From a virus (lineage: Duplodnaviria; Heunggongvirae; Uroviricota; Caudoviricetes), in IMG/VR virus record IMGVR_UViG_2663763428_000004: a DNA stretch of 9,872 nucleotides. One strand, given 5' to 3'. Below are positions 1 to 9,872 of the stretch, piece by piece. The notes beneath the pieces were generated by a model that saw only the letters and a list, made by a program, of their open reading frames with translations, was not told the origin of the DNA and searched no databases. Made by a program: the position numbers and the translations under genes. How positions within the stretch are numbered: the first letter of the stretch is position 1; every line of letters begins with the position of its first letter.

Positions 1-157
1 TAATCGTGTCCTCTGTGGTGGGTGTGGTGAATGTTATGTGTGGTTTGTGAGTAGTGTCCTGTGCATAGTCAGGTGTGTGTTTATGTAGAACTTAGGCGAC
101 CACCGAGATCTACACATTTATATTCGGCGGCAGCGTCAGATGTGTAGAAGAGAGTAG
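1..157. other. Non-biological library-adapter read-through at contig end (Illumina P5 sequence, 8-nt index-like spacer, degenerate Nextera read-1 / Tn5 mosaic-end sequence)
   Basis: 95-115 ggcgaccaccgagatctacac exactly matches the 3' part of the P5 adapter. 116-123 is an 8-nt index-like spacer. 124-157 tcggcggcagcgtcagatgtgtagaagagagtag matches TCGTCGGCAGCGTCAGATGTGTATAAGAGACAG apart from a few substitutions to G. 1-94 is GT-rich junk typical of reading past the adapter. Confidence 0.8.
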
Positions 158-693
158 GTAATACCCAAATCCTTGCATCTTTTCGATATTTCCTCATCGA
201 AGAAATACATTACTGTATTTGAAATAATGGGAGAAGAAGGTGCTCCAACACTTAGGCGTAACGGGCTATTTCTTCTTAACTTCCAGAAGAAAAGATTTTT
301 AAGAACAAAGATATCAGTATCAGTTAGTTCAACGCCATAATCTTTTAAGACAGATAAAAGATTATGGGGTTTGATACTCATAAAAAAGTTTTTAAAATCC
401 ATTTTAAGCAAATAATCATTATTACAATGCATTAACGCATTAGATCTAATACTTTTATCGGCTTCATAAGCGAAAGCATTTTCATGAACTTTCAAATTAG
501 CCAACATATGATTGATTACTACCTTCTGTAAGGCTTTAACTTGCCTAGCTGGTTGTGCAATTAATCTATATCCATTACCATTTCTTTTGGCGATAGGATA
601 AATTTTATATCTGCGTGGAATAGTAACAATATACCTTTTAGCCTCTTCTTCGCTAAGAAAAAGACCTTTTGAAATATAACTTAGCAACTCCAT
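158..693 (-). CDS. Retron-type reverse transcriptase, 3'-truncated fragment (N-terminal part through motif B; contig ends just before the expected YxDD box)
   Basis: ORF-track entry 136..708. Retron-RT blocks read directly: YIVTIPRRYKIYPIAKRNGNGYRLIAQPARQVKALQ (compare Ec86 RIYTVEKKG..RTIYQPSRELKALQ), motif A LKMDFKNFF, motif B LSVGAPSSPIISN. Preferred start is the ATG at 693-691, preceded by GGAGG; the track start at 708 is a GTG. The last ~7 codons and the stop at 136-157 are adapter-derived. Confidence 0.85.
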
Positions 694-694
694 T

Positions 695-1681
695 CTAAGC
701 CCCTCCACGCACGATATTGATTTGATTTAGAGCATTTTTCCTTTTTTTTGCAGTCTCGTCCATATCTTTAGCATCCATACTTAAGTAAGATTGTCGGATT
801 GCAACCTTAATATTCATAGAATCCTTTATTTTACCACTAGCACTGATACCAAATTTAAGTTTACTCTCTCTATGCCCTCGGGAATAGAAGTAGTCTGTAC
901 CACTGTAAGATAATGATGAGGTTAATTTCATCTTTTCAAGCAAATAAAGTAAACGAGTTATTATTTTTTGTGGCACATCTATATCCATACAGTATAGTGC
1001 CCACTCTATTTCGCTTTTCTTGATTGGTTCTGATAAAAGGATTATTTCGTAAATCAATATAGCTAGGTGCCCAGTATTTTCAGGGTTATATCGCTCCGTT
1101 TTTTTTACACGTTTTAATCTAGAATGAATATCATGGTAGATAAGCTCAACCTCATCATATTTCATACGATCCGATTTTGGCCATGGATAAACTGATACTG
1201 AGGCCTCATCTATTTTTTTAAGATACTCCAAAGGGCCTAAATATATAAAAGAAGATCTAGCAGGAATATTTTTTCGTTCATTTCCCTCAATCTCCTCAAA
1301 TGGTGCGACTACATGCAATTTTTGAGCTAGAGACTTCCTATTAACAAATAATCCAAGCTCAACTAACGAACCTGCACTTTCTAAACAGATAACAACTAAT
1401 GTTGAAATATTTGCAATATCATCTTCAAAGCTCATTAGATCTGAATATGCCCCCTCTCTGAAGTAGTCATGGAAGTTCTCAGCTAAAATAAGAGAATCTG
1501 ACAATTCAGGTTTGTGGCCTGCTACATAAGTAAATATGTGGTCTCGTACACTCATTGGAGTGGAATTTATCGGCCCACCACAAACAAAAATAATAGGAGG
1601 CATGAACTGAACAGTGAAATTTGAATATTTCAAATCTCCAAACTGCTCTTGTAATGCATTCATATATGCAGAATCACTCAC
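695..1681 (-). CDS. Retron effector candidate with nucleoside 2-deoxyribosyltransferase-like (NDT-like) N-terminal domain, RcaT/Ec86-effector-like
   Basis: 328-aa ORF immediately upstream of the RT on the same strand (stop TAG 697-695, RT ATG 693). N-terminal IIFVCGGP followed by ESAGSLVELG, which resembles the NDT catalytic-glutamate motif (compare DVGLGMELGY). AT-rich like the RT. Start is uncertain: GTG at 1681 per the track, or ATG at 1663. Confidence 0.7.
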   Translation of the reverse strand: MSDSAYMNALQEQFGDLKYSNFTVQFMPPIIFVCGGPINSTPMSVRDHIFTYVAGHKPELSDSLILAENFHDYFREGAYSDLMSFEDDIANISTLVVICLESAGSLVELGLFVNRKSLAQKLHVVAPFEEIEGNERKNIPARSSFIYLGPLEYLKKIDEASVSVYPWPKSDRMKYDEVELIYHDIHSRLKRVKKTERYNPENTGHLAILIYEIILLSEPIKKSEIEWALYCMDIDVPQKIITRLLYLLEKMKLTSSLSYSGTDYFYSRGHRESKLKFGISASGKIKDSMNIKVAIRQSYLSMDAKDMDETAKKRKNALNQINIVRGGA

Positions 1682-1689
1682 CCTTGTGA

Positions 1690-1905
1690 CCCCCTACTCC
1701 AAAAGAAAAGGTGGCTAACCAGCCACCTTCGACCCCTTTACCTAAAGGATGCGCTTTAGACTTTCAGCAAGATCCTGAATGGAACGCAGTGGCATGAAGG
1801 ATCTTGCTGAAAGTGCTAAAGCGCAACCCTAAATGTCCACAATAAATTAGTGTCTGGCGAAACGCCCGACAAGGATAAACCTGTTATCCCGCGCGTAAAG
1901 GTAGG
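1690..1905 (-). ncRNA. Candidate retron msr-msd non-coding RNA (structure-based guess; boundaries approximate)
   Basis: Non-coding stretch directly upstream of the effector and RT. Interrupted 26-bp hairpin at 1751-1824 (perfect 16-bp core 1761-1776 / 1798-1813, 21-nt loop). Further hairpins at 1708-1729, 1857-1867 and around 1872-1888. Possible minus-strand promoter: -35 TTGAAA (plus 1931-1936), -10 TATCCT (plus 1909-1914). No a1/a2 repeat pair or branching G identified. Confidence 0.35.
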
Positions 1906-2261
1906 GTTAGGATAGCAAAAGATGCGAGATTTTCAATAAGTAAGCGTACTGGCTGCCAGCAACCACCTAAACCATTGACATTTAAACAAAAATAAATCTA
2001 ACAATTGAAAGCAATACCTTATTGAATACAGCATTCTTATATCTCTCTTGATATCGCAACATCACAATTATCACCGTTAGTGCGGGCAGCCCCGCACGCC
2101 TGCCCGCTTCGCTTAACAGACTGGTTTTCATGCACCTCATTAATCGTCTCAGAAGCCAGCACACAAGGGTTTTCTCGTCAAAAATGGTGCATAAGACTCA
2201 TGCGTTTTCATGCGCCATAGACATGCACTCATGCGCTCTCATGTCAGCCAGGAAAAGGGGG

Positions 2262-2290
2262 TAAAAAATCCCGGTACTGGACCGGGATTA
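2262..2290 (-). terminator. Rho-independent terminator ending the sid-psu-ogr operon
   Basis: Stem tcccggt (2269-2275) / accggga (2281-2287), 5-nt loop, A-run 2263-2268 on plus strand giving a U6 tract after the stem on the minus strand; about 20 nt downstream of the ogr stop. Confidence 0.6.
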
Positions 2291-2308
2291 CGTGGGCGTT
2301 CTTTCTAA

Positions 2309-2581
2309 TCAGACAGGAATCTGCTGACGGCTTGACAGTTTTGACGCGGAGCCATAGCGATTGAGCGTTTTCTGTTGTTTTTCCGGGGATTGTGCTTTGT
2401 CTGATAGCTGTTCATTGCGCCGGGGTTTCATGATTATCTTATCCACACTCTCCAGTGCCGTAAATGTGCAGGAACATTCCAGATTCTGGCACTGATACCA
2501 CGAGCGTTTAACTGACGGAGCTTCATAGGCTGCTGTTCTGGCGTGTGCAACTGTACCGCATTCCGGACATTTAAGTGCCAT
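2309..2581 (-). CDS. ogr: Ogr/Delta-family zinc-finger late-gene transcriptional activator (single Ogr-like domain)
   Basis: MALKCPECGTVAHARTAAYEAPSVKRSWYQCQNLECSCTFTALESV matches the P2 Ogr C-x2-C...C-x4-C block (compare HCPLCQHAAHARTSRY..RYHQCQNVNCSATF as I recall it). Preferred start is ATG 2581-2579 with AGGAG 8 nt upstream; the track start at 2590 is a GTG. Confidence 0.85.
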   Translation of the reverse strand: MALKCPECGTVAHARTAAYEAPSVKRSWYQCQNLECSCTFTALESVDKIIMKPRRNEQLSDKAQSPEKQQKTLNRYGSASKLSSRQQIPV

Positions 2582-2586
2582 TAATA

Positions 2587-3138
2587 TCACTCCTGTATAT
2601 CGTTAATGTCATTCAGGCGTTGCTGAAAACGCAGATGTTGTGCCGGGGTGTAAGAACCCTGGCAATCACGAATCATCCCGGGGTCAGGCATCAAACCGGA
2701 TTCATCCAGGATCTCACGATAATCCCCGGCAATTTCAGGCGGTGTTATTGCCAGCTGGCGAACCAGAGCACTGCGTAATATACGGGACGCAACGTCAACC
2801 CCTCCGCGCCCCTTCAGGAACGGAGCCAGTGCAGATGTCAGGGCTGCCCCATTCGCCTGCATAAAATTGCTGAGAGCGGCTTCTGTGCAGGCCTCCATCA
2901 GTAAATGCTGCGAGTAAATGCATTCGCGCGCAGCACAGTTAATTTGCCATTTCAGCACATCCAGACGTTCCCGCAGTAATTCGAGCTGTCGGGCATAATC
3001 TGCTGGTTTTTCTGTGGCAGCGAGGAGAGATGTTATCTGTTGTTCAACGGCTTTTCGGCTCTCATTATGTCCGGCCCACAGAATACGGGCATTCCGAAAA
3101 CTGGTAAGTGCCTGGTCAGGCGTGCCTCGGGCCGTCAT
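2587..3138 (-). CDS. psu: Psu-like polarity suppression protein (Rho antagonist / capsid decoration protein of P4-type satellites)
   Basis: 183 aa. Blocks KWQINCAARECIYSQ, FMQANGAALTSALAPFL and YTPAQ resemble P4 Psu as I recall it. AGGAG upstream of ATG 3138; ATGA overlap with the preceding gene. Confidence 0.7.
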   Translation of the reverse strand: MTARGTPDQALTSFRNARILWAGHNESRKAVEQQITSLLAATEKPADYARQLELLRERLDVLKWQINCAARECIYSQHLLMEACTEAALSNFMQANGAALTSALAPFLKGRGGVDVASRILRSALVRQLAITPPEIAGDYREILDESGLMPDPGMIRDCQGSYTPAQHLRFQQRLNDINDIQE

Positions 3139-3878
3139 ACTGCTTTCTCCTTCTCAGCAAGTTCCTGACGAACCTTAATTTTATGCATAGCTGCCGGAGA
3201 GAGTTGATTACTGAAATCCAGACGCGCCGCATAATCCGGGGCAACTCCCGCCAGTTTAAACACCGGGTCCTGCTCAGGCATCGCATCGTTAGCCAGAGCC
3301 GGTCTGGTGATATGTTTATGAATAAAGTCTTTCAGCACTGTGTCCGGGTCATTAACTGAATTCACCACACCCACAACGGCACTGGCTTCCCGGCCCATTG
3401 TGGATTTAAGCAGGCTCAGCGTCTGAATAAGCGCTTTTCCATGCGACTGCATAAAATCCTCCCAGATTTGTTTTGCGCGAATATCCACAAGAATGTTATG
3501 CGCGTGGATATACTTTCCGGCTAATTCTGCAGCTTTCTGCGGCAAAAGTGCATTTTCGCTTTCCTGAGCCGCCAGCAGCTCATCAAAATCCTCAAGCGTT
3601 TCTCGTCCCAGCGCAATTTCCGTGCGCAGTTTTTTCATTTCCTTTGAGACCACGCCCTGACTTTCACGAAACAGCGTGCGCCACTCCTCATTCAGTGTGT
3701 TCGTCGTGGCTTCCATTTCAGCGCGACGCTGGCGGATTGTCGCAATATTATCCGCTGCCGCTTTCTGCTGACGACGTGCTTCAAGCCATGCGTTTCTGGC
3801 TGTGTTCATGGTTTCCAGTGCCCGCTGCGTTACAGCCGGAAAAGTGGAAAGGTTGTTATTCACTGCGGTGTTGTTCAT
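3135..3878 (-). CDS. sid: Sid-like capsid size-determination (external scaffold) protein, Sid/Psu family
   Basis: 247 aa, first gene after the iteron region, AGGAG before ATG 3878, translationally coupled to psu. Predicted helical and charged-residue rich. WRTLFRESQGVVSKE and FMQSHGKALIQTL resemble Sid/Psu-family blocks. Assignment rests mainly on synteny with psu and ogr. Confidence 0.55.
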   Translation of the reverse strand: MNNTAVNNNLSTFPAVTQRALETMNTARNAWLEARRQQKAAADNIATIRQRRAEMEATTNTLNEEWRTLFRESQGVVSKEMKKLRTEIALGRETLEDFDELLAAQESENALLPQKAAELAGKYIHAHNILVDIRAKQIWEDFMQSHGKALIQTLSLLKSTMGREASAVVGVVNSVNDPDTVLKDFIHKHITRPALANDAMPEQDPVFKLAGVAPDYAARLDFSNQLSPAAMHKIKVRQELAEKEKAV

Positions 3879-3912
3879 GACTTCTCCTGTCGGGTTGGTT
3901 CGTTACGTCAAT

Positions 3913-3968
3913 TGTGTCGTGGCTGACACAAGCACACTATCGGTGCTCAGTGTGTGGTGGCTGGCACA
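3913..3968 (-). promoter_or_regulatory. Two TGT-N12-ACA dyads (candidate Ogr/Delta-dependent late promoter upstream of sid)
   Basis: tgtgtcgtggctgacaca at 3913-3930 and tgtgtggtggctggcaca at 3951-3968, each TGT-N12-ACA; the distal one is centred about 81 nt upstream of the sid ATG. Confidence 0.45.
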
Positions 3969-4054
3969 ACGGACGCTTGCGGTTATTCAGACGTGGCTAT
4001 GAAAGCCAGCCAGATAAAAATGCCCTCTGTTTCAGTCTGCTTTATGTCCCTGAT

Positions 4055-4252
4055 GCGGTGGAACAGGTGAAACATGTGTTACAGCTTTGTTTTATAAGGC
4101 ATTTATATACACTGCACCGGTGGAACATCGCGGGTAACAAGGTGGAACAGCGGATTGGCTGGCGTTACATCTGTTCCACCTCACTATTTCAGAAGGTGGA
4201 ACAGGTTCAGCCCTGTAAAATACGGTTGTTCCACCTGTTTCACCTGTTACCC
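4055..4252. repeat. Iteron cluster (candidate crr/ori-like replication element bound by the adjacent primase)
   Basis: GGTGGAACAG/T at 4057-4066, 4119-4128, 4141-4150, 4195-4204; inverted (C/T)TGTTCCACC at 4171-4180 and 4226-4235; variants GTGAAACA 4067-4074, TGTTTCACC 4236-4244, GGGTAACA/TGTTACCC 4132-4139 and 4245-4252. Lies in the non-coding gap just after the primase stop. Confidence 0.6.
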
Positions 4253-4278
4253 TTAATAAATAAGACTCACGCAAAGCC

Positions 4279-6951
4279 TTAACCCGGCACCTCGCTGTTG
4301 AAGACATAGAGCCTGCGGGGATTCATCTCTGGCGGGCGAATGGTTGTCTGGAGTTTGCCATCAGTGGAGGGCAGCAGGTATCCACGATCTGCGCACAGAC
4401 GCGCCACCTTGCGCGGGTCAAATCCCCTGCAGATTTCTTTCCAGCCGGACGGCATGACATAGAACGTAGTGACAGCTTCCGTGCCCTGCGCGGTACTGCC
4501 TTTCTCCACCCTGCGCCAGCCCACCATATTGCCGGGGCGGTTGCGCTCGTCATACCAGTCTGCAAAGCGGCTGTACTGATTCGCGGTAAAGAAACTGCGA
4601 ACCTGCTCCAGTGCGGCGATATCTTCCTGATTGGCGGTGTGCCCGCGATCTTTCAGCCATGCGTTCAGGCAGACGCGGGTTGCCCGCAGTGCTTCACCCT
4701 CAGGCCAGCCGGTGATACCCAGACGGGTTGCCAGTTCACCTGCCATCGCCACCAGAGCAAAGCGGTTCACAGCCCGGCCCACCTGATTGCCTGCATCTTT
4801 CGGAGTCAGGGCGGCAGCATATTCCTTCATCAGCGATTTTGCCTGTGCCGTTAGTCCGTTAAGATCAGCGGTCAGTGCTTTCAGCCACTCCCGGAACGGC
4901 GAACCGTAGTAGCAGGACGTGGCCCATTCAAGATGCTCTGCCAGAGCCTTGCCGCTGTCGAAGCCGTGCAGCTCCTCAAAAACGCCAAACTTCCCGGAAT
5001 CGCTGGGGATCTGGATCATCCTGACTTCCATCCCGGCAAAAGTACGCTCACCGGCCTTTGCCGCATGTTCGGTCAGAGACAACTCGCCAGTTGAAAAGAA
5101 CAACAGGCGCCAATGCTTACGGGTACGCAGCTCACCGTCCGTACCGGCACGGCCCTTGCCCTGACCGTTTGCCAGCATGTAGGCGATATTGCCTGCCTCG
5201 CGTCCGTCAACTTCCCGGATCTCATCAAGCATCATGGCGGCATCGTTGCGGCGGCTGGCGCATCCCTCCAGCGCGTTGCCGGTGGCCCGCCATGTCTGCC
5301 AGTAGTCAGGCCCGCCGCAGACGGAGGTTGCCGCTTTCATGGTGGTGGTCTTACCGTCTGTCGATTCCCCTTTGAGGTGGTAGCCGCCGCCGTCCATACC
5401 AACCAGCCGTAACAGTGGTGCAGCAAAGGCCAGGCTGACAGCAAATGCCACGCGGGAGTTGCCGGTACAGTAGCGGGATACATGCTCCCGCCATTCCTCT
5501 GTTGTGCCCGACACGCGGAAATCACGCCCCTGCACGGAAGTGGTCTGGAGAATGACACCCTCTGCACCTTCACCGCTGACCTCATCCTGCAGGACGTAAA
5601 CCTGACCATGCCAGCCAGTACGACTGACGCAGGTCACGCGGCGTTCCGGTTTACACAGTGAGATATATTCCATCAGGCGTGCGCGTGCCTCACCGGTGGT
5701 GCTGATATAAGACAGCCCGTTAACCAGCAATACCCGGCGCAGTTCCTCACCACTGCCGCTCAGCATTTCCATCGGCATCGCCCAGCGGCGACACTCACCC
5801 CACGTATCTTCCCATTCCAGCAGTCGTCCGAAGTTACCGCCATCGGCATCGCAGGTGATTGCCGTCACGCGCAGCGGGCTGCATATTTTGACGTTCTGGA
5901 TCTCCGTCTCACCGTTGCGCTGTACCTGCTTTTCATACCAGAGATATTCCTGGGTAAGACGGAACCCGTGCGGCAGTTGCGTGCGGCCCTCCCCGCACAG
6001 CACCAGACCGTTACGAAAGGCTTCACGGGCGCGGGTAATACCGTGCTCCCGATGGAAGTCATTCCAGTCGGCCTTAATCTCTCCCGGTGGCAGCGTCATC
6101 CAGCCGCCAACAGCTTTTGCCGCCCGTTCAGCAAAGGCTCTGCCGGGATTCTCACCCCCGTCCTGAAAATCGTTATCACCGGCGATGATAATTTTTACCT
6201 CAGGCCAGCGTGCCCGCAGCGACTGCGCCACATTGGGCAGGTTGCCCGCAGATATGGCAGCCACTACGCATCCGGCAGTGAGCTGACTTACCGTCAGCGC
6301 CGTAGCGTAACCTTCGGTAATCACCACCTGTACCGGTGGTTCAGACGGTAACGGGCTGAGCGACACAAACGCGCCTTTCATCGTGCTGCCGGGCAGTATG
6401 CTTTTTTCACCCGTCGGGGCGATAAGCTGTGCACCAGTCACGGCTCCGGTGTTGGTCGTGAGTGGTAACAGCAGGGAACCGGCAGGAAAATCCTTACCGC
6501 TGATATGCTGCACGCTTCCGGTCAGAGAGGCCGGGTATCCGGCGAACCCTTTTCCTGTCAGATAGGCGCTTTCTCCCGTGTGGCTCTCTTTCATCAGCGC
6601 CGCCACGGTAAGACCCATGTCGCGTTTAGGGGCTTTTTTTCTGGCAGGCTTAACAGGCAGTTCCTGCACATCCGGCACATTAAGCACCTGCGCCACCTCC
6701 TGCGCAGCCTTTCTGACGCTGTAACCGGTTACGAGCTTAACCAGATCCAGACCGTCACCATTGCCACACTGGCTGCAGATCCACGTCCCGCGCCCGTCAA
6801 GGTCATCAAGGCGAAAACGATCCTTGCCCCCACATTTCGGGCAGGGACCGTGCCTGCCGTTTTCAGGTACATCAATACGCAGCATCTGGAGAATAACGGG
6901 CCATTTCCCCCGTGCGGCGGCTGAAATCTGCGTAACCGTCTGTATTGTCAT
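4279..6951 (-). CDS. Satellite primase-helicase, P4 alpha-like (N-terminal zinc ribbon, TOPRIM, C-terminal P-loop NTPase)
   Basis: 890 aa. CPKCGG..(x19)..CSQCG zinc ribbon (coded about 6766-6843); TOPRIM-like VVITEGYATA...IIIAGDND; Walker A GESTDGKTT. ATG 6951 with GGGGGA upstream; ATGA overlap with the upstream gene. Confidence 0.9.
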   Translation of the reverse strand: MTIQTVTQISAAARGKWPVILQMLRIDVPENGRHGPCPKCGGKDRFRLDDLDGRGTWICSQCGNGDGLDLVKLVTGYSVRKAAQEVAQVLNVPDVQELPVKPARKKAPKRDMGLTVAALMKESHTGESAYLTGKGFAGYPASLTGSVQHISGKDFPAGSLLLPLTTNTGAVTGAQLIAPTGEKSILPGSTMKGAFVSLSPLPSEPPVQVVITEGYATALTVSQLTAGCVVAAISAGNLPNVAQSLRARWPEVKIIIAGDNDFQDGGENPGRAFAERAAKAVGGWMTLPPGEIKADWNDFHREHGITRAREAFRNGLVLCGEGRTQLPHGFRLTQEYLWYEKQVQRNGETEIQNVKICSPLRVTAITCDADGGNFGRLLEWEDTWGECRRWAMPMEMLSGSGEELRRVLLVNGLSYISTTGEARARLMEYISLCKPERRVTCVSRTGWHGQVYVLQDEVSGEGAEGVILQTTSVQGRDFRVSGTTEEWREHVSRYCTGNSRVAFAVSLAFAAPLLRLVGMDGGGYHLKGESTDGKTTTMKAATSVCGGPDYWQTWRATGNALEGCASRRNDAAMMLDEIREVDGREAGNIAYMLANGQGKGRAGTDGELRTRKHWRLLFFSTGELSLTEHAAKAGERTFAGMEVRMIQIPSDSGKFGVFEELHGFDSGKALAEHLEWATSCYYGSPFREWLKALTADLNGLTAQAKSLMKEYAAALTPKDAGNQVGRAVNRFALVAMAGELATRLGITGWPEGEALRATRVCLNAWLKDRGHTANQEDIAALEQVRSFFTANQYSRFADWYDERNRPGNMVGWRRVEKGSTAQGTEAVTTFYVMPSGWKEICRGFDPRKVARLCADRGYLLPSTDGKLQTTIRPPEMNPRRLYVFNSEVPG

Positions 6952-7331
6952 ACTTCCCCCTGATACAACGTCACACCGGTACTGCAGAAGTCATCAAAGG
7001 CCGCCGGAAGCGTGCGGTACATCTCCGCCATCACTTCACAGCCGCGCGCGGTCAGTACCGGCGGCGCGGTCAGCAGTGACGGCTCCAGCATGTCAGTCAG
7101 CAGTGCCAGCGCGGCAGCGGCGCCCTGTGCTTCGCCGTACTCGTTAATCAGTACGCACTCGATATGCAGCGCAATGGCCATTTCAATACGCTCCACCGTC
7201 AGGCTGTGCGGACCATACTGATCACTGCCAGTTTCGTTCAGCATTTTCTGCCGCCATGCTGAAGCAATAGCCCGCCGGTAAAGCGCGGTGGTCATTTCTG
7301 CCGGGAAAATGGAAACCTGCGGCTGGTTCAT
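6948..7331 (-). CDS. Hypothetical protein (127 aa), translationally coupled upstream of the primase
   Basis: ATG at 7331; ATGA overlaps at both ends; GC content like the satellite core. No motif recognised. Confidence 0.6.
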   Translation of the reverse strand: MNQPQVSIFPAEMTTALYRRAIASAWRQKMLNETGSDQYGPHSLTVERIEMAIALHIECVLINEYGEAQGAAAALALLTDMLEPSLLTAPPVLTARGCEVMAEMYRTLPAAFDDFCSTGVTLYQGEV

Positions 7332-7612
7332 CTGGCACCTCCTTCAATCAGTGCGCAGCTGTGTGCAATATCCGTCAAATCTGCCAGCAGGTACTCCATC
7401 AGCGCGGCGACACCATGCGCACAGCCAGCGTCCAGTGCTCCGGCCTGAGACGGGTATTCAGAAAAGAGAAGCTGGAGCATGTCGCAGGCATTTCTTGCGC
7501 GGGTCAGTTTTCCGAAACTGTCCTCTGACAACCCATAGGCAAAAGCACCGGTATTGTGTTTTTCAGGCAAAGTGTGGCCCTGAGCACCGTTGTGCCCGTT
7601 TGAAATATTCAT
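7328..7612 (-). CDS. Hypothetical protein (94 aa)
   Basis: ATG 7612 with GGAG upstream; ATGA overlap with the next gene. No motif recognised. Its position is analogous to the small regulators upstream of alpha in P4, but that is positional only. Confidence 0.5.
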   Translation of the reverse strand: MNISNGHNGAQGHTLPEKHNTGAFAYGLSEDSFGKLTRARNACDMLQLLFSEYPSQAGALDAGCAHGVAALMEYLLADLTDIAHSCALIEGGAR

Positions 7613-7643
7613 CGTGGATTACTCCGTTTTCAGCGGTATTTTG

Positions 7644-8003
7644 TCAGAGAAACTTTGAATAGTGACCGTCGTCAGGCTCAGCAGAACGCCGTATGCTACG
7701 CTCCCGCCAGCGGATAAATAGCACAGACGGATGCAGTGTCAGCGGGCCGGAACCACTACCGCCAGCAGGAGCTGGTGCAGGCTTCAAGAGCGGTACATCA
7801 AACAGGCGCGTATACCGCTGTTCAAACCATGCCAGAGGGCAGGAAGAAAGCTGGTTGTCGCTGTCATGACGTATCAGCACTTCACAGCTGAATTCAGGAT
7901 TAACCAGCGCCACAGAGGGCGAGGCTTCTATTAATCGGATAATCGTGACCGTCCAGCCACGTTCATGCTGCCAGCGTTCGCCGGGGTGCGGATAATTACG
8001 CAT
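7644..8003 (-). CDS. Hypothetical protein (~119 aa)
   Basis: Track ORF 7644..8033 begins at a TTG; I prefer the ATG at 8003-8001, which is preceded by GGAGGTG. No motif recognised. Confidence 0.5.
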   Translation of the reverse strand: MRNYPHPGERWQHERGWTVTIIRLIEASPSVALVNPEFSCEVLIRHDSDNQLSSCPLAWFEQRYTRLFDVPLLKPAPAPAGGSGSGPLTLHPSVLFIRWRERSIRRSAEPDDGHYSKFL

Positions 8004-8172
8004 GTTCACCTCCGCAGGGAATGCGCCCGGCAAAGCTCAGTACATAGTCCGGGGCAAGTCTGCGCCGCGCTGACCGCTCGTTATCTGCGGTGATCCTTAA
8101 CATCACAGGACGGGCATTGCGTTGACTGCGGTTGATCGCCGCAAATAACCAGGTACACTTCTGTTTAGCCAT
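7996..8172 (-). CDS. Small basic hypothetical protein (58 aa), first gene of the leftward operon
   Basis: ATG at 8172-8170 preceded by GAGG; this is the 3' part of track ORF 7996..8730, whose upstream portion crosses the promoter and operator region and is not credible as coding. Confidence 0.35.
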   Translation of the reverse strand: MAKQKCTWLFAAINRSQRNARPVMLRITADNERSARRRLAPDYVLSFAGRIPCGGEHA

Positions 8173-8247
8173 CTTCGTTACCTCATTTAGCGGATTGGTC
8201 AGAAGCCCGGTTAGTGTTGCTGCACTGTCGGGCTTCGCACTCACAAG

Positions 8248-8340
8248 GTGAATCGCACCTTTAATTTTAAAGCTACCCTTAAGTGAATCGCACTTCAAGC
8301 TTTTTATTATCATTTTTTTTGCATATACTGAATCGCACCT
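8248..8340. promoter_or_regulatory. Three direct repeats (G/C)TGAATCGCAC(C/T)T in the divergent control region, with a candidate plus-strand promoter
   Basis: Repeats at 8248-8260, 8283-8295 and 8328-8340; -10-like TATACT at 8324-8329 abuts the third repeat; weak -35 TTTTTA at 8301-8306. Confidence 0.45.
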
Positions 8341-8359
8341 AACGCGAGGAGATCCAGTA

Positions 8360-8545
8360 ATGGCAACGAGTTCAACTAACAACAAGTCGCAGCAACTTAA
8401 TGCTCGTTTCCCACATGATGTAGTTGCAGAATTAGAAAGCAACCTTGAAGATGGAGAAACGAAAGCGCAATTCATTGTTACGGCTGTAAAAGGCGAGATT
8501 AAACGCCGACAGCGCAGGAAAAATAAGCCAGAGCAAGGTAGTTGA
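8360..8545 (+). CDS. Small ribbon-helix-helix (CopG/Arc-like) DNA-binding protein, candidate repressor
   Basis: 61 aa; GAGGAG 8 nt before the ATG; N-terminal ARFPHDVVAELESNL...AQFIVTAVKGEI fits the RHH strand-helix-helix pattern; basic C-terminal tail. No toxin partner downstream. Confidence 0.55.
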   Translation: MATSSTNNKSQQLNARFPHDVVAELESNLEDGETKAQFIVTAVKGEIKRRQRRKNKPEQGS

Positions 8546-8608
8546 ATAGAGAAGCCAACAGACGTTCTCTCTGTTTCCATGTTAATTTCAGTAAGCGACA
8601 ATATTTTT

Positions 8609-8642
8609 AAGCCCACAAATTCATTATGTCGGGCTTTTTTAT
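8609..8642 (+). terminator. Intrinsic terminator after the RHH gene
   Basis: Stem 8609-8617 / 8627-8636 with one bulge, 9-nt loop, then T6; sits between the convergent RHH and alpA genes. Confidence 0.5.
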
Positions 8643-8872
8643 TAGTGATTTTCATATCGCTCACCACGAGAGGCATATATTTGCTCTTGAATCCAGTGAT
8701 CCACTTCGCTTTCAACAAATGAAATTGCACGAGTTCCTATTTTCACCGGACGGGGAAATGTATTGTTTGCAAGCTGTTTGTAAAGCCATGCCTTGCTACG
8801 CTGAACGCGTCTTAAGACCTCTTTTGCTGAGATAAGAGTCTGATTATCTGAAAAGCTGTTTGCATATTCCAT
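8642..8872 (-). CDS. alpA: AlpA/Vis-family phage transcriptional regulator / excisionase-like protein
   Basis: LISAKEVLRRVQRSKAWLYKQLANNTFPRPVKIGTRAISFVESEVDHWI matches the AlpA helix-turn-helix pattern. Preferred start is ATG 8872 with GGAG upstream; the track start at 8917 is a GTG. Confidence 0.8.
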   Translation of the reverse strand: MEYANSFSDNQTLISAKEVLRRVQRSKAWLYKQLANNTFPRPVKIGTRAISFVESEVDHWIQEQIYASRGERYENH

Positions 8873-9248
8873 CTTGTTACTCCGTGTTCTACTTAAGTTC
8901 ACGGTGACTTTAAACACTGGGAAAAAGTGATTCTAGTGATAATGGAATCTATTAAGACAAATATTGATTCTATTGAAAAACAATAATCTCCACTGAAAAA
9001 AGAAGTAATATTCATATGAAAGAACACGGAGAGAAGGAAATGCACAAAAAAAACAAAATCAATAGAATTCATATGGATAGGATGGAAAATCAAAAAATCA
9101 TATGTCAAAAGGTATTATTGCATTTTAACGATTCATATTACCTAGGAATTAGCACAGTATTACACCATATTACATCGTATTACCCCCTATAGCCCGTTAG
9201 AGCCTCTTGTGGCCCTTCTATTGAGAGATAGCCAGAAAATTAATAAAT

Positions 9249-9851
9249 TTACTCTCCGTATTTTATAATGTCTTTCCCAAGCTTTATTTTCTTATAAAAC
9301 GTAGCTTTTTTAACCCCTTTCATTAGAATCTCATTCTCATTACAAAAAGAAACAATATCATTATATATAACACTATTATCGCTATAACTTACCTTTCCAT
9401 GTCTCTTAAGCAATTCAATTAGTAAATAAATTAATTTACAACTATAATTATCCTCATCATCTTTTCTGTACTGCCCTCTACCATTACTCCTTAATTTTTT
9501 ACCAACTTCATATAATTCACTTCCTCCTAACGTCATTAGAATATCACTCCAATCTTTATTTTTTACCTGTTGTCGTAATGCGTTCTCAATTCTCTCCTTA
9601 ATCTCCACAGGTACAATACCTTCCCTCTGAAAGATATAAGCGGCAGTTAATAATAAGTTCGCCTCCACTTTTTGCGTGGCGGATACGTTTTTATATTCAT
9701 TAATTAATTGTAGATTTCTGGTTATTGCCTTTCTTAATCTAATAACCTCTTTTAATTGAACCTCAGTCAATTCATCATTTTCGGTATCATAGTCAAAACC
9801 ATTCATAGCAAGCGCCACTTCGTGTGGCGTTATGTAAGTTACCCTATTAAA
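9249..9851 (-). CDS. AT-rich hypothetical protein, probably 5'-truncated by the contig end
   Basis: Track ORF 9249..9818 starts at a GTG. Neither that GTG nor the first ATG (9806) has a Shine-Dalgarno sequence, and the frame stays open up to the adapter at 9854. No recognisable motif. Confidence 0.55.
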   Translation of the reverse strand, partial: FNRVTYITPHEVALAMNGFDYDTENDELTEVQLKEVIRLRKAITRNLQLINEYKNVSATQKVEANLLLTAAYIFQREGIVPVEIKERIENALRQQVKNKDWSDILMTLGGSELYEVGKKLRSNGRGQYRKDDEDNYSCKLIYLLIELLKRHGKVSYSDNSVIYNDIVSFCNENEILMKGVKKATFYKKIKLGKDIIKYGE

Positions 9852-9853
9852 AT

Positions 9854-9872
9854 CTGTCTCTTATCAACATCT
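9854..9872. other. Non-biological Nextera mosaic-end remnant at contig end
   Basis: ctgtctcttatcaacatct matches CTGTCTCTTATACACATCT at 17 of 19 positions. Confidence 0.75.

Follow-up and report, generated by a model that had tools for sequence, protein, structure and literature searches.

The window, that is, the whole stretch of 9,872 nt that was analysed, is a P4-like satellite of E. coli whose genes are read along the minus strand. Its left part carries a retron St85 module with the reverse transcriptase cut at the left edge, the effector at 695-1681 and the msr at 1836-1902, followed by delta (2309-2581), psu (2587-3138), sid (3135-3878) and the alpha primase (4279-6951), all on the minus strand. 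Three small genes and an icd-like gene lie between the alpha primase and a divergent plus-strand gene of the YlcI/YnfO family (8360-8545; 61 aa, PHROG 949). Further to the right are alpA (8642-8872, minus strand), which encodes an AlpA/Vis-family regulator and excisionase homologue according to Pfam (PF05930, E = 1e-11) and the RefSeq annotation, and the gene under study, here called X. Codons 12-212 of X occupy 9249-9853 on the minus strand, with the stop codon at 9249-9251, as seen from the ORF, its translation and the genome match.

Several other features of the satellite were observed. In the retron ncRNA region (1695-1902), upstream of the effector-RT operon, the msr matches RF00170 with 42 bits (gathering score 52), and beside it there is an STnc400-like match to RF02058 with 55 bits (below 80). 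An RNA-based immunity element of the C4/CI type was sought with Rfam, and only these two matches were obtained. In the intergenic region between alpha and sid (4057-4244), TGTTCCACC/TGTTTCACC occurs eight times, counting both orientations, and resembles the type I iterons of P4 (TGTTCACC). This array probably marks the ori/crr of the satellite, and comparable 9-nt arrays follow the primase in four of the compared loci (L003, L014, L016, L019). Three exact GTGCGATTCA repeats (8249-8338) are located between the icd-like gene and the divergent YlcI/YnfO-family gene, and in sister elements this place is taken by another small gene with palindromes of its own (CATGGTAATTACC in L012 and GTGTAATGACACATTACAC in L013). 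The YlcI/YnfO-type gene and its repeats resemble an exchangeable repressor-operator (immunity) cassette acting on the replication operon.

The complete genome NZ_CP028578.2 (L001) is colinear with window positions 152-9853 (offset 3101) and differs from them only at 9842. The genome match ends at 9853 in 205 of 205 E. coli genomes, and the 19-nt tail at 9854-9872 (ctgtctcttatcaacatct, with CTGTCTCTTAT located at 9854) has no match in any E. coli genome. This non-genomic tail is the Tn5/Nextera mosaic-end adapter, in reverse orientation and with two mismatches. At the left end, GT-rich junk at positions 1 to ~94 precedes Illumina P5 (95-115), an 8-nt index and a Nextera read-1/mosaic end with errors up to 151. 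The window is one tagmented fragment of ~9.7 kb. Since both of its ends are library adapters, the truncations of the retron reverse transcriptase and of X are technical and not biological. The mismatch at 9842 (C versus A in NZ_CP028578.2), which turns Leu16 into Val in X, lies only 11 nt from the adapter junction and is therefore probably a read-end error. On the far side of the element, to the left of the retron, L001:1-2900 contains a degraded second integrase (frameshifted and truncated), an IS3 fragment and a group II intron. An attR copy of the tRNA-Leu end was sought in L001, and no exact repeat of at least 12 nt was found; the region beyond the retron may be a tandem or decayed island array.

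In NZ_CP028578.2, X has 212 codons (L001:12350-12988; WP_001066505.1, "hypothetical protein"), of which the window holds 201, the 11 N-terminal codons being absent. In the 205 complete E. coli genomes with X, the gene continues for 34 nt beyond the match to an ATG with GGAGAG upstream. This true ATG is 15 nt past the window end and 29 nt after the stop of a P4-type tyrosine integrase gene (int) adjoining tRNA-Leu. Neither of the in-window candidate starts (GTG at 9818 and ATG at ~9806), at which the preliminary description saw no ribosome-binding site, is the real start. It had also read the frame as open to the window edge, whereas two apparent in-frame stops are present at 9861-9866, both inside the adapter; in the complete genomes the ORF is not interrupted just upstream. 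Its view of the ORF as the C-terminal piece of a larger protein holds for the truncation at the window end and fails for the size, since only 11 residues are missing.

X is a real gene, far beyond chance, and it is under purifying selection. Its dN/dS is 0.05-0.17 within allelic groups, and the corresponding values are 0.07-0.13 for alpA and 0.02-0.06 for int. The protein matches the PHROG 30524 HMM over residues 1-212 and profile positions 1-220 (E = 9.6e-109), and distant homologues (L002, L003, P0065, P0072) match the same family. The family is small and restricted to the Enterobacterales: a single-sequence search gave 23 clusters and a profile search 53, and 1.8 billion proteins contained 41 representatives at 50% identity. 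Two matches were set aside, namely P0051 (1106 aa with 7 "stretches", a junk or chimeric match) and P0080 (the N-terminus of X fused to an unrelated integrase fragment). The allele in the window occurs in ~4% of complete E. coli genomes, and distant alleles occur in more.

As noticed earlier, X is AT-rich like the retron module (GC 0.31 and 0.34, respectively) and lies on the same strand, while int (0.45) and the satellite core (0.54) are richer in GC. However, the 376-nt spacer between X and alpA has a GC content of 0.32, alpA of 0.41, and most X homologues of 0.31-0.43, with one at 0.57. Thus, the AT-richness runs from X through the spacer into alpA and recurs in most homologues, so it is a property of this zone and not a mark of recent cargo.

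Coupling of X to the integrase gene

The gene order is int-X-alpA, and X lies 376 nt upstream of alpA, in the AT-rich part of the satellite where the preliminary description had placed it. Among 5426 E. coli genomes, int was found in 205 and X in 205, the two genes being adjacent in every record inspected, and the retron was found in 156. In the P4-like satellite at tRNA-Leu, the integrase operon has X as its second gene. Moreover, X is located directly 3' of a P4-type integrase gene or its remnant in all contexts examined (L001-L011, L014, L016, L019, L020, L022-L026). The distance from the int stop to the X start is -4 to +55 nt across homologues; in other lineages X overlaps int or begins 1-5 nt past its stop, with its own Shine-Dalgarno sequence. 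The neighbours of homologues with 20-32% identity are also P4-type integrases, with Arm-DNA-bind_3, Phage_int_M and Phage_integrase domains.

A search for related loci with a narrow X alignment gave 8 loci. X homologues occur in P4-like satellites located at yicC in Pantoea and Hafnia (L016, L019, L024), in a satellite with Ash and alpha (L023), in an E. coli ssrA island (L014), in a circular 12-kb PICI-like element (L003) and in the capsid-forming PICI vB_KppS-Ant (L002). X is absent from P4 and from ~50,000 other phage records. The allele of the ssrA island (P0065) stands for 1438 member sequences. In this island (L014/L015) and in L020, other genes are present between X and alpA, namely a 390-aa minus-strand gene and two more in one case and a 1490-aa protein in the other island. 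The position of these inserted genes indicates that cargo enters downstream of X and leaves the int-X pair intact. In Apirhabdus, X is frameshifted while int is intact, and in two Symbiopectobacterium genomes both X and int are fragmented (L009-L011). These broken copies are consistent with island decay and with X being a gene that can be lost.

The preliminary description had treated X as cargo, possibly of the same hotspot as the retron if the assembly were circularly permuted. The documented hotspots of P4-like satellites extend from int to psu/delta(-sid) on the circular map, or from the primase to att (PMC13586616); X is outside the described hotspots and constant among close relatives. 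The retron occupies the slot from delta to att. Between the retron and X lie the integrase gene and attL/tRNA-Leu in one direction and the whole element in the other. This slot is variable. In L022, the same int-X-alpA...delta backbone carries an AAA-ATPase system in the place of the retron, and elsewhere the slot is filled by a SMEK-domain protein (L012) or by other genes (L013). As to the earlier proposal to look for homologues beside retron or other defence genes, the constant neighbour of X in the related satellites is the integrase gene. Thus, X is not part of the retron hotspot and is a fixed member of one satellite integration-module type.

It is extremely improbable that X represents the C-terminal part of a much larger protein in the variable hotspot of the retron, displaced by a circularly permuted assembly. 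Such a reading could draw on the ORF being cut at the window end and on the composition and strand shared with the retron. However, the window already holds 201 of the 212 codons and is bounded by library adapters, the circular form puts int and att between X and the retron slot, and X is constant where the slot varies, so the reading is refuted by the complete genomes. A false lead is thereby removed, as X lies outside the retron hotspot and is truncated only by the sequencing adapter.

Module exchange and divergence of X

Two sister satellites without X, integrated at tRNA-Thr or tRNA-Arg (L012, L013), are 98-100% identical to the window in the region from icd to delta. They carry a different block next to it, with an integrase that is 41-47% identical, a different alpA and a different putative small repressor. 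In a comparison with window positions 7996-9872, the boundary of the exchange is at ~8210-8235, just beyond the icd-like gene. The slot between int and alpA encodes a 210-aa protein in L012 and a 293-aa protein in L013, both unrelated to X and without a Pfam, PHROG or PADLOC match. A remote homology of these slot proteins to X was rejected by BLASTP and hhalign (probability < 0.2%), and a likeness of their C-terminal halves to X, noted by eye, was unsupported. In the tRNA-Arg module, too, the slot gene goes with its own integrase (66 versus 72 genomes). The presence of different blocks on identical cores means that these satellites swap the int-slot-alpA module in one piece, with X filling the slot in one module family. 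Furthermore, since the replication and hijacking genes of the sisters without X are near-identical to those of the window, X is dispensable for the core P4-like cycle.

The exchange of slot genes bears on the possibility that X is a "moron" expressed in lysogeny. Such a single gene, carried on the constitutive integrase transcript, would act in defence, superinfection exclusion or anti-defence and benefit the host or the satellite against other phages. The unrelated 210- and 293-aa proteins in the sister slots, the dispensability of X for the core cycle, its frameshift in Apirhabdus and its fragmentation in the decaying Symbiopectobacterium islands would all fit such a gene. So would its AT-richness, its presumed expression in the quiescent state by co-transcription with int, and the wealth of defence genes in satellites (PMC9122126, PMC13586616). 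On the other hand, no PADLOC match was found for X or its distant homologues, and no enzymatic or NTPase motif is present in the conserved columns. The synteny with int is kept down to ~20% identity across P4-like, PICI-like and capsid-forming PICI satellites, X occurs 1:1 with int while true hotspot cargo turns over, and the documented P4 hotspots are elsewhere (PMC13586616). We consider a defence or anti-defence function, which had been suggested earlier, a serious but rather unlikely alternative; the deep synteny with int in three satellite types favours membership of the satellite's own integration and regulation module. Should X nevertheless act in defence or exclusion, it would represent a new single-gene system.

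By a sliding comparison of the E. coli element with the Izhakiella, Klebsiella indica and Apirhabdus islands, a sharp breakpoint was found at the int/X junction. The int DNA is 94-97% identical, and from the first codons of X the identity is 60-70%. The dS is 0.13-0.30 for int and 1.3-1.8 for alpA, and it is saturated for X. Across loci, the identities of X and alpA form the pairs 93/93, 65/82, 27-28/33 and 23/29 percent, respectively. The integrases are 97-98% identical at the amino acid level where X is 65% identical, and the identity of X tracks neither int nor the primase. Taken together, the breakpoint, the dS values and the tracking of identities mean that X is coupled physically to int, and shares its history with alpA and the control region.

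This discordance weighs on another explanation, in which X is a cofactor of the integrase, either an architectural or specificity factor acting with the P4-type integrase in integration or excision at att, or a factor that controls how much integrase is present. The tight operon coupling, with the int stop and the X start overlapping or nearly abutting in several lineages, and the 1:1 co-occurrence of the two genes are what would be expected of such a partner. The same applies to the movement of the int-slot-alpA block as a unit between satellites with identical cores and to the tie between the slot gene of the tRNA-Arg module and its own int. However, the same integrase is found with X alleles that are only 65% identical and have a saturated dS, which argues against co-adaptation of int and X and weakens the cofactor idea. 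Moreover, AlpA/Vis already provides directionality (PMC6092414, PMC10111431). A role of X as a cofactor is unlikely, but it too is a serious alternative.

The spacer between X and alpA

In loci where alpA is the next gene after X, the two genes are separated by an AT-rich spacer of 305-590 nt (8873-9248 in the window) with two kinds of repeats. The spacers of the sister satellites without X (L012, L013) are 102-125 nt long and contain no arrays. The first kind, starting ~55 nt after the X stop, consists of 4-5 phased heptamers GTAATAC/T on the minus strand, ~10 nt apart, at 9135-9183. They are adjoined by a GGGCTATAGGGGG motif (9183-9195), which recurs in L005, L007 and L018. The pattern RTATTAC has 8 matches versus 1.8 expected, and 4 of them lie within 9135-9195. 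Period-10 arrays with lineage-specific units are found at the same place after the X homologues of L002, L003, L005, L007-9, L016/18 and L019, beginning 34-170 nt after the X stop.

The second kind comprises three TCAATAGAAT-like repeats at 8930-8976, ~18-20 nt apart, which lie 58-104 nt upstream of the alpA start and ~250 nt after X. The TCAATAGAAT-type motif persists in L007-9, which have an alpA of 80-84% identity, and ATGGAAT repeats take its place in loci with an alpA of ~33% identity. The AlpA of EcCICFT073 is known to activate its own promoter (PMC6092414), and the change of the motif with the identity of alpA fits this type of control. The TCAATAGAAT-like repeats are thus probably AlpA autoregulation sites. 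Exact copies of TTCTATTGA were also located at 9059-9067 (inverted) and 9216-9224, and all three exact 9-mers of this sequence in the window fall inside the spacer.

With regard to the period-10 arrays, the Cox protein of the helper P2 binds direct repeats 10-11 bp apart upstream of PLL, the promoter of the alpA homologue of P4 (PMC3936717), and recombination directionality factors (RDFs) generally bind such direct-repeat arrays (PMC7498355). By this precedent, the arrays may belong to AlpA or to a helper protein and not to X, and the candidate binders of the repeats at 9135-9195 are X, AlpA and a helper Cox/Apl-like protein. Two other assignments of the spacer repeats were ruled out. They are not primase iterons, because the 8 copies of TGTTCCACC are confined to 4057-4244, and they are not arm sites of the integrase, because different repeats (TGGTCTCTTGT) are present upstream of int. 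In L001rc, L005, L007 and L009, period-10 repeats of TGGTCT(C/T)TTGT were observed ~60-100 nt upstream of int, in the stretch that separates its start from the tRNA-Leu end; these are probably arm-type integrase sites, distinct from the repeats of the X-alpA spacer. When the motifs of the X spacer were sought near attL, none was found, and the repeats beside X are ~2 kb from the att core, which further counts against a role of X as a cofactor of the integrase at att.

The X protein, its possible role and comparison with known systems

X is a protein of ~25 kDa that is mildly basic, with a pI of 8.3-9.2 in most members of the family. An AlphaFold model built with 15 close sequences had a pLDDT of 64, and an alignment of 45 sequences was used instead, which gave a confident all-helical model with nine helices (pLDDT 90, pTM 0.62). 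The model is less certain over the invariant basic loop at residues 134-145 (S-N-G-R-G-Q-Y-R-K-D-D-E), for which the invariant family pattern is G-R-G-x-H/Y-R-K-x-D-E. The other conserved elements are an N-terminal motif E-x-A-L...G, T/V-P at residues 92-93, L-G-G at 120-122, a hydrophobic helix K-L-I-x-L-L and a C-terminal helix G-x-x-K-S/A-T-F-Y-x-K, and the conserved columns contain no enzyme-type or NTPase motif.

The earlier remark that X carries no recognisable motif was borne out by the searches. Scans against Pfam, NCBIfam and PADLOC gave nothing above noise, there was no match to PF05930 or HTH_17 in Pfam, and in PADLOC-DB 2.0 (2023) no family reached E <= 1 for X or E <= 0.1 for the homologues of L002 and L003. 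No match was obtained in PDB sequence searches with the single X protein, the profile of the full family or the profile of the C-terminal domain, and Foldseek-type fold searches with the model gave no significant structural match. A Pfam scan of 27 family members produced helix-turn-helix hints, all of them below the threshold. Thus, X has no known family function, fold or defence-model match.

We hypothesize, tentatively, that X serves the int/alpA switch as a DNA-binding accessory, in a regulatory or architectural capacity, and is co-expressed with the integrase; we regard this as quite possible, though short of probable. X would be made together with the integrase during quiescence of the satellite and would bind DNA in the spacer beside its own gene. 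Its binding would set the threshold at which the alpA promoter fires under an active helper phage, and hence the threshold for excision and induction. It would mean that X is a regulator or an architectural part of the int/alpA switch rather than an anti-phage payload. We infer the DNA binding, its target and the regulatory role, and favour this role because X diverges in step with alpA and the control region, is associated with long spacers that bear repeats, and is basic and helical, and because the control of alpA lacks an explanation. On the other side, no helix-turn-helix family reached its threshold, and the fold searches gave no significant match. The YlcI/YnfO-family gene with its GTGCGATTCA repeats is a more conventional candidate for the repressor of the replication operon, the sister satellites without X share the core, and L014 and L020 have genes between X and alpA.

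How alpA is turned on by the helper phage in Gram-negative satellites (PICIs, cf-PICIs and many P4-like elements) is described as unresolved, and no repressor or sensor of alpA is known in them (PMC6092414). A stronger proposal would make X a new fold family and the missing protein of this induction switch, co-expressed with int, acting on the phased sites and gating alpA and excision or sensing the helper. X would then be a functional analogue of Stl without any relationship to it; we consider this improbable. As a conserved, int-linked gene upstream of a repeat-rich alpA control region, X is nevertheless a concrete and testable candidate for the question of how alpA is controlled. We rate X as an accessory protein of the satellite integration and regulation module, previously catalogued only as hypothetical.

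X belongs to a catalogued family (PHROG 30524, WP_001066505.1) without annotated function, domain or structure. In the satellite literature searched, no gene of its kind between int and alpA is described, nor are its linkage to int, its co-divergence with alpA and the repeat-bearing spacer. The one slot gene discussed there, EcCIMP1_002, encodes a different and much smaller protein. X resembles the cargo of P4/P2 defence hotspots (Rousset 2022; de Sousa 2026) in being an AT-rich gene of a retron-carrying P4-like satellite, but it differs in its location outside the described hotspots, its constancy in close relatives and the absence of a defence-model match (PMC13586616). With the RDFs AlpA, Vis, Cox and Apl it shares the integration zone and the period-10/11 repeats upstream of the alpA/vis promoter (PMC3936717, PMC7498355). 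However, such factors are small winged-helix proteins (60-100 aa), one third the size of X with its all-helical model, and a genuine AlpA gene adjoins X. The Stl/Rpr master repressors of Gram-positive PICIs (SaPIs) have no detectable sequence or fold similarity to X (Foldseek with the Stl N-terminal structures, E = 3.5-9, probability 0.02-0.05), and Stl is transcribed divergently from the genes that it controls, whereas X is co-directional with int and alpA. The likeness to Stl/Rpr lies in the position between int and the excision/regulatory gene and in being helical, ~200-250 aa long and highly divergent between elements, and the role of Stl/Rpr is the one that is "missing" in Gram-negative satellites (PMC6092414).
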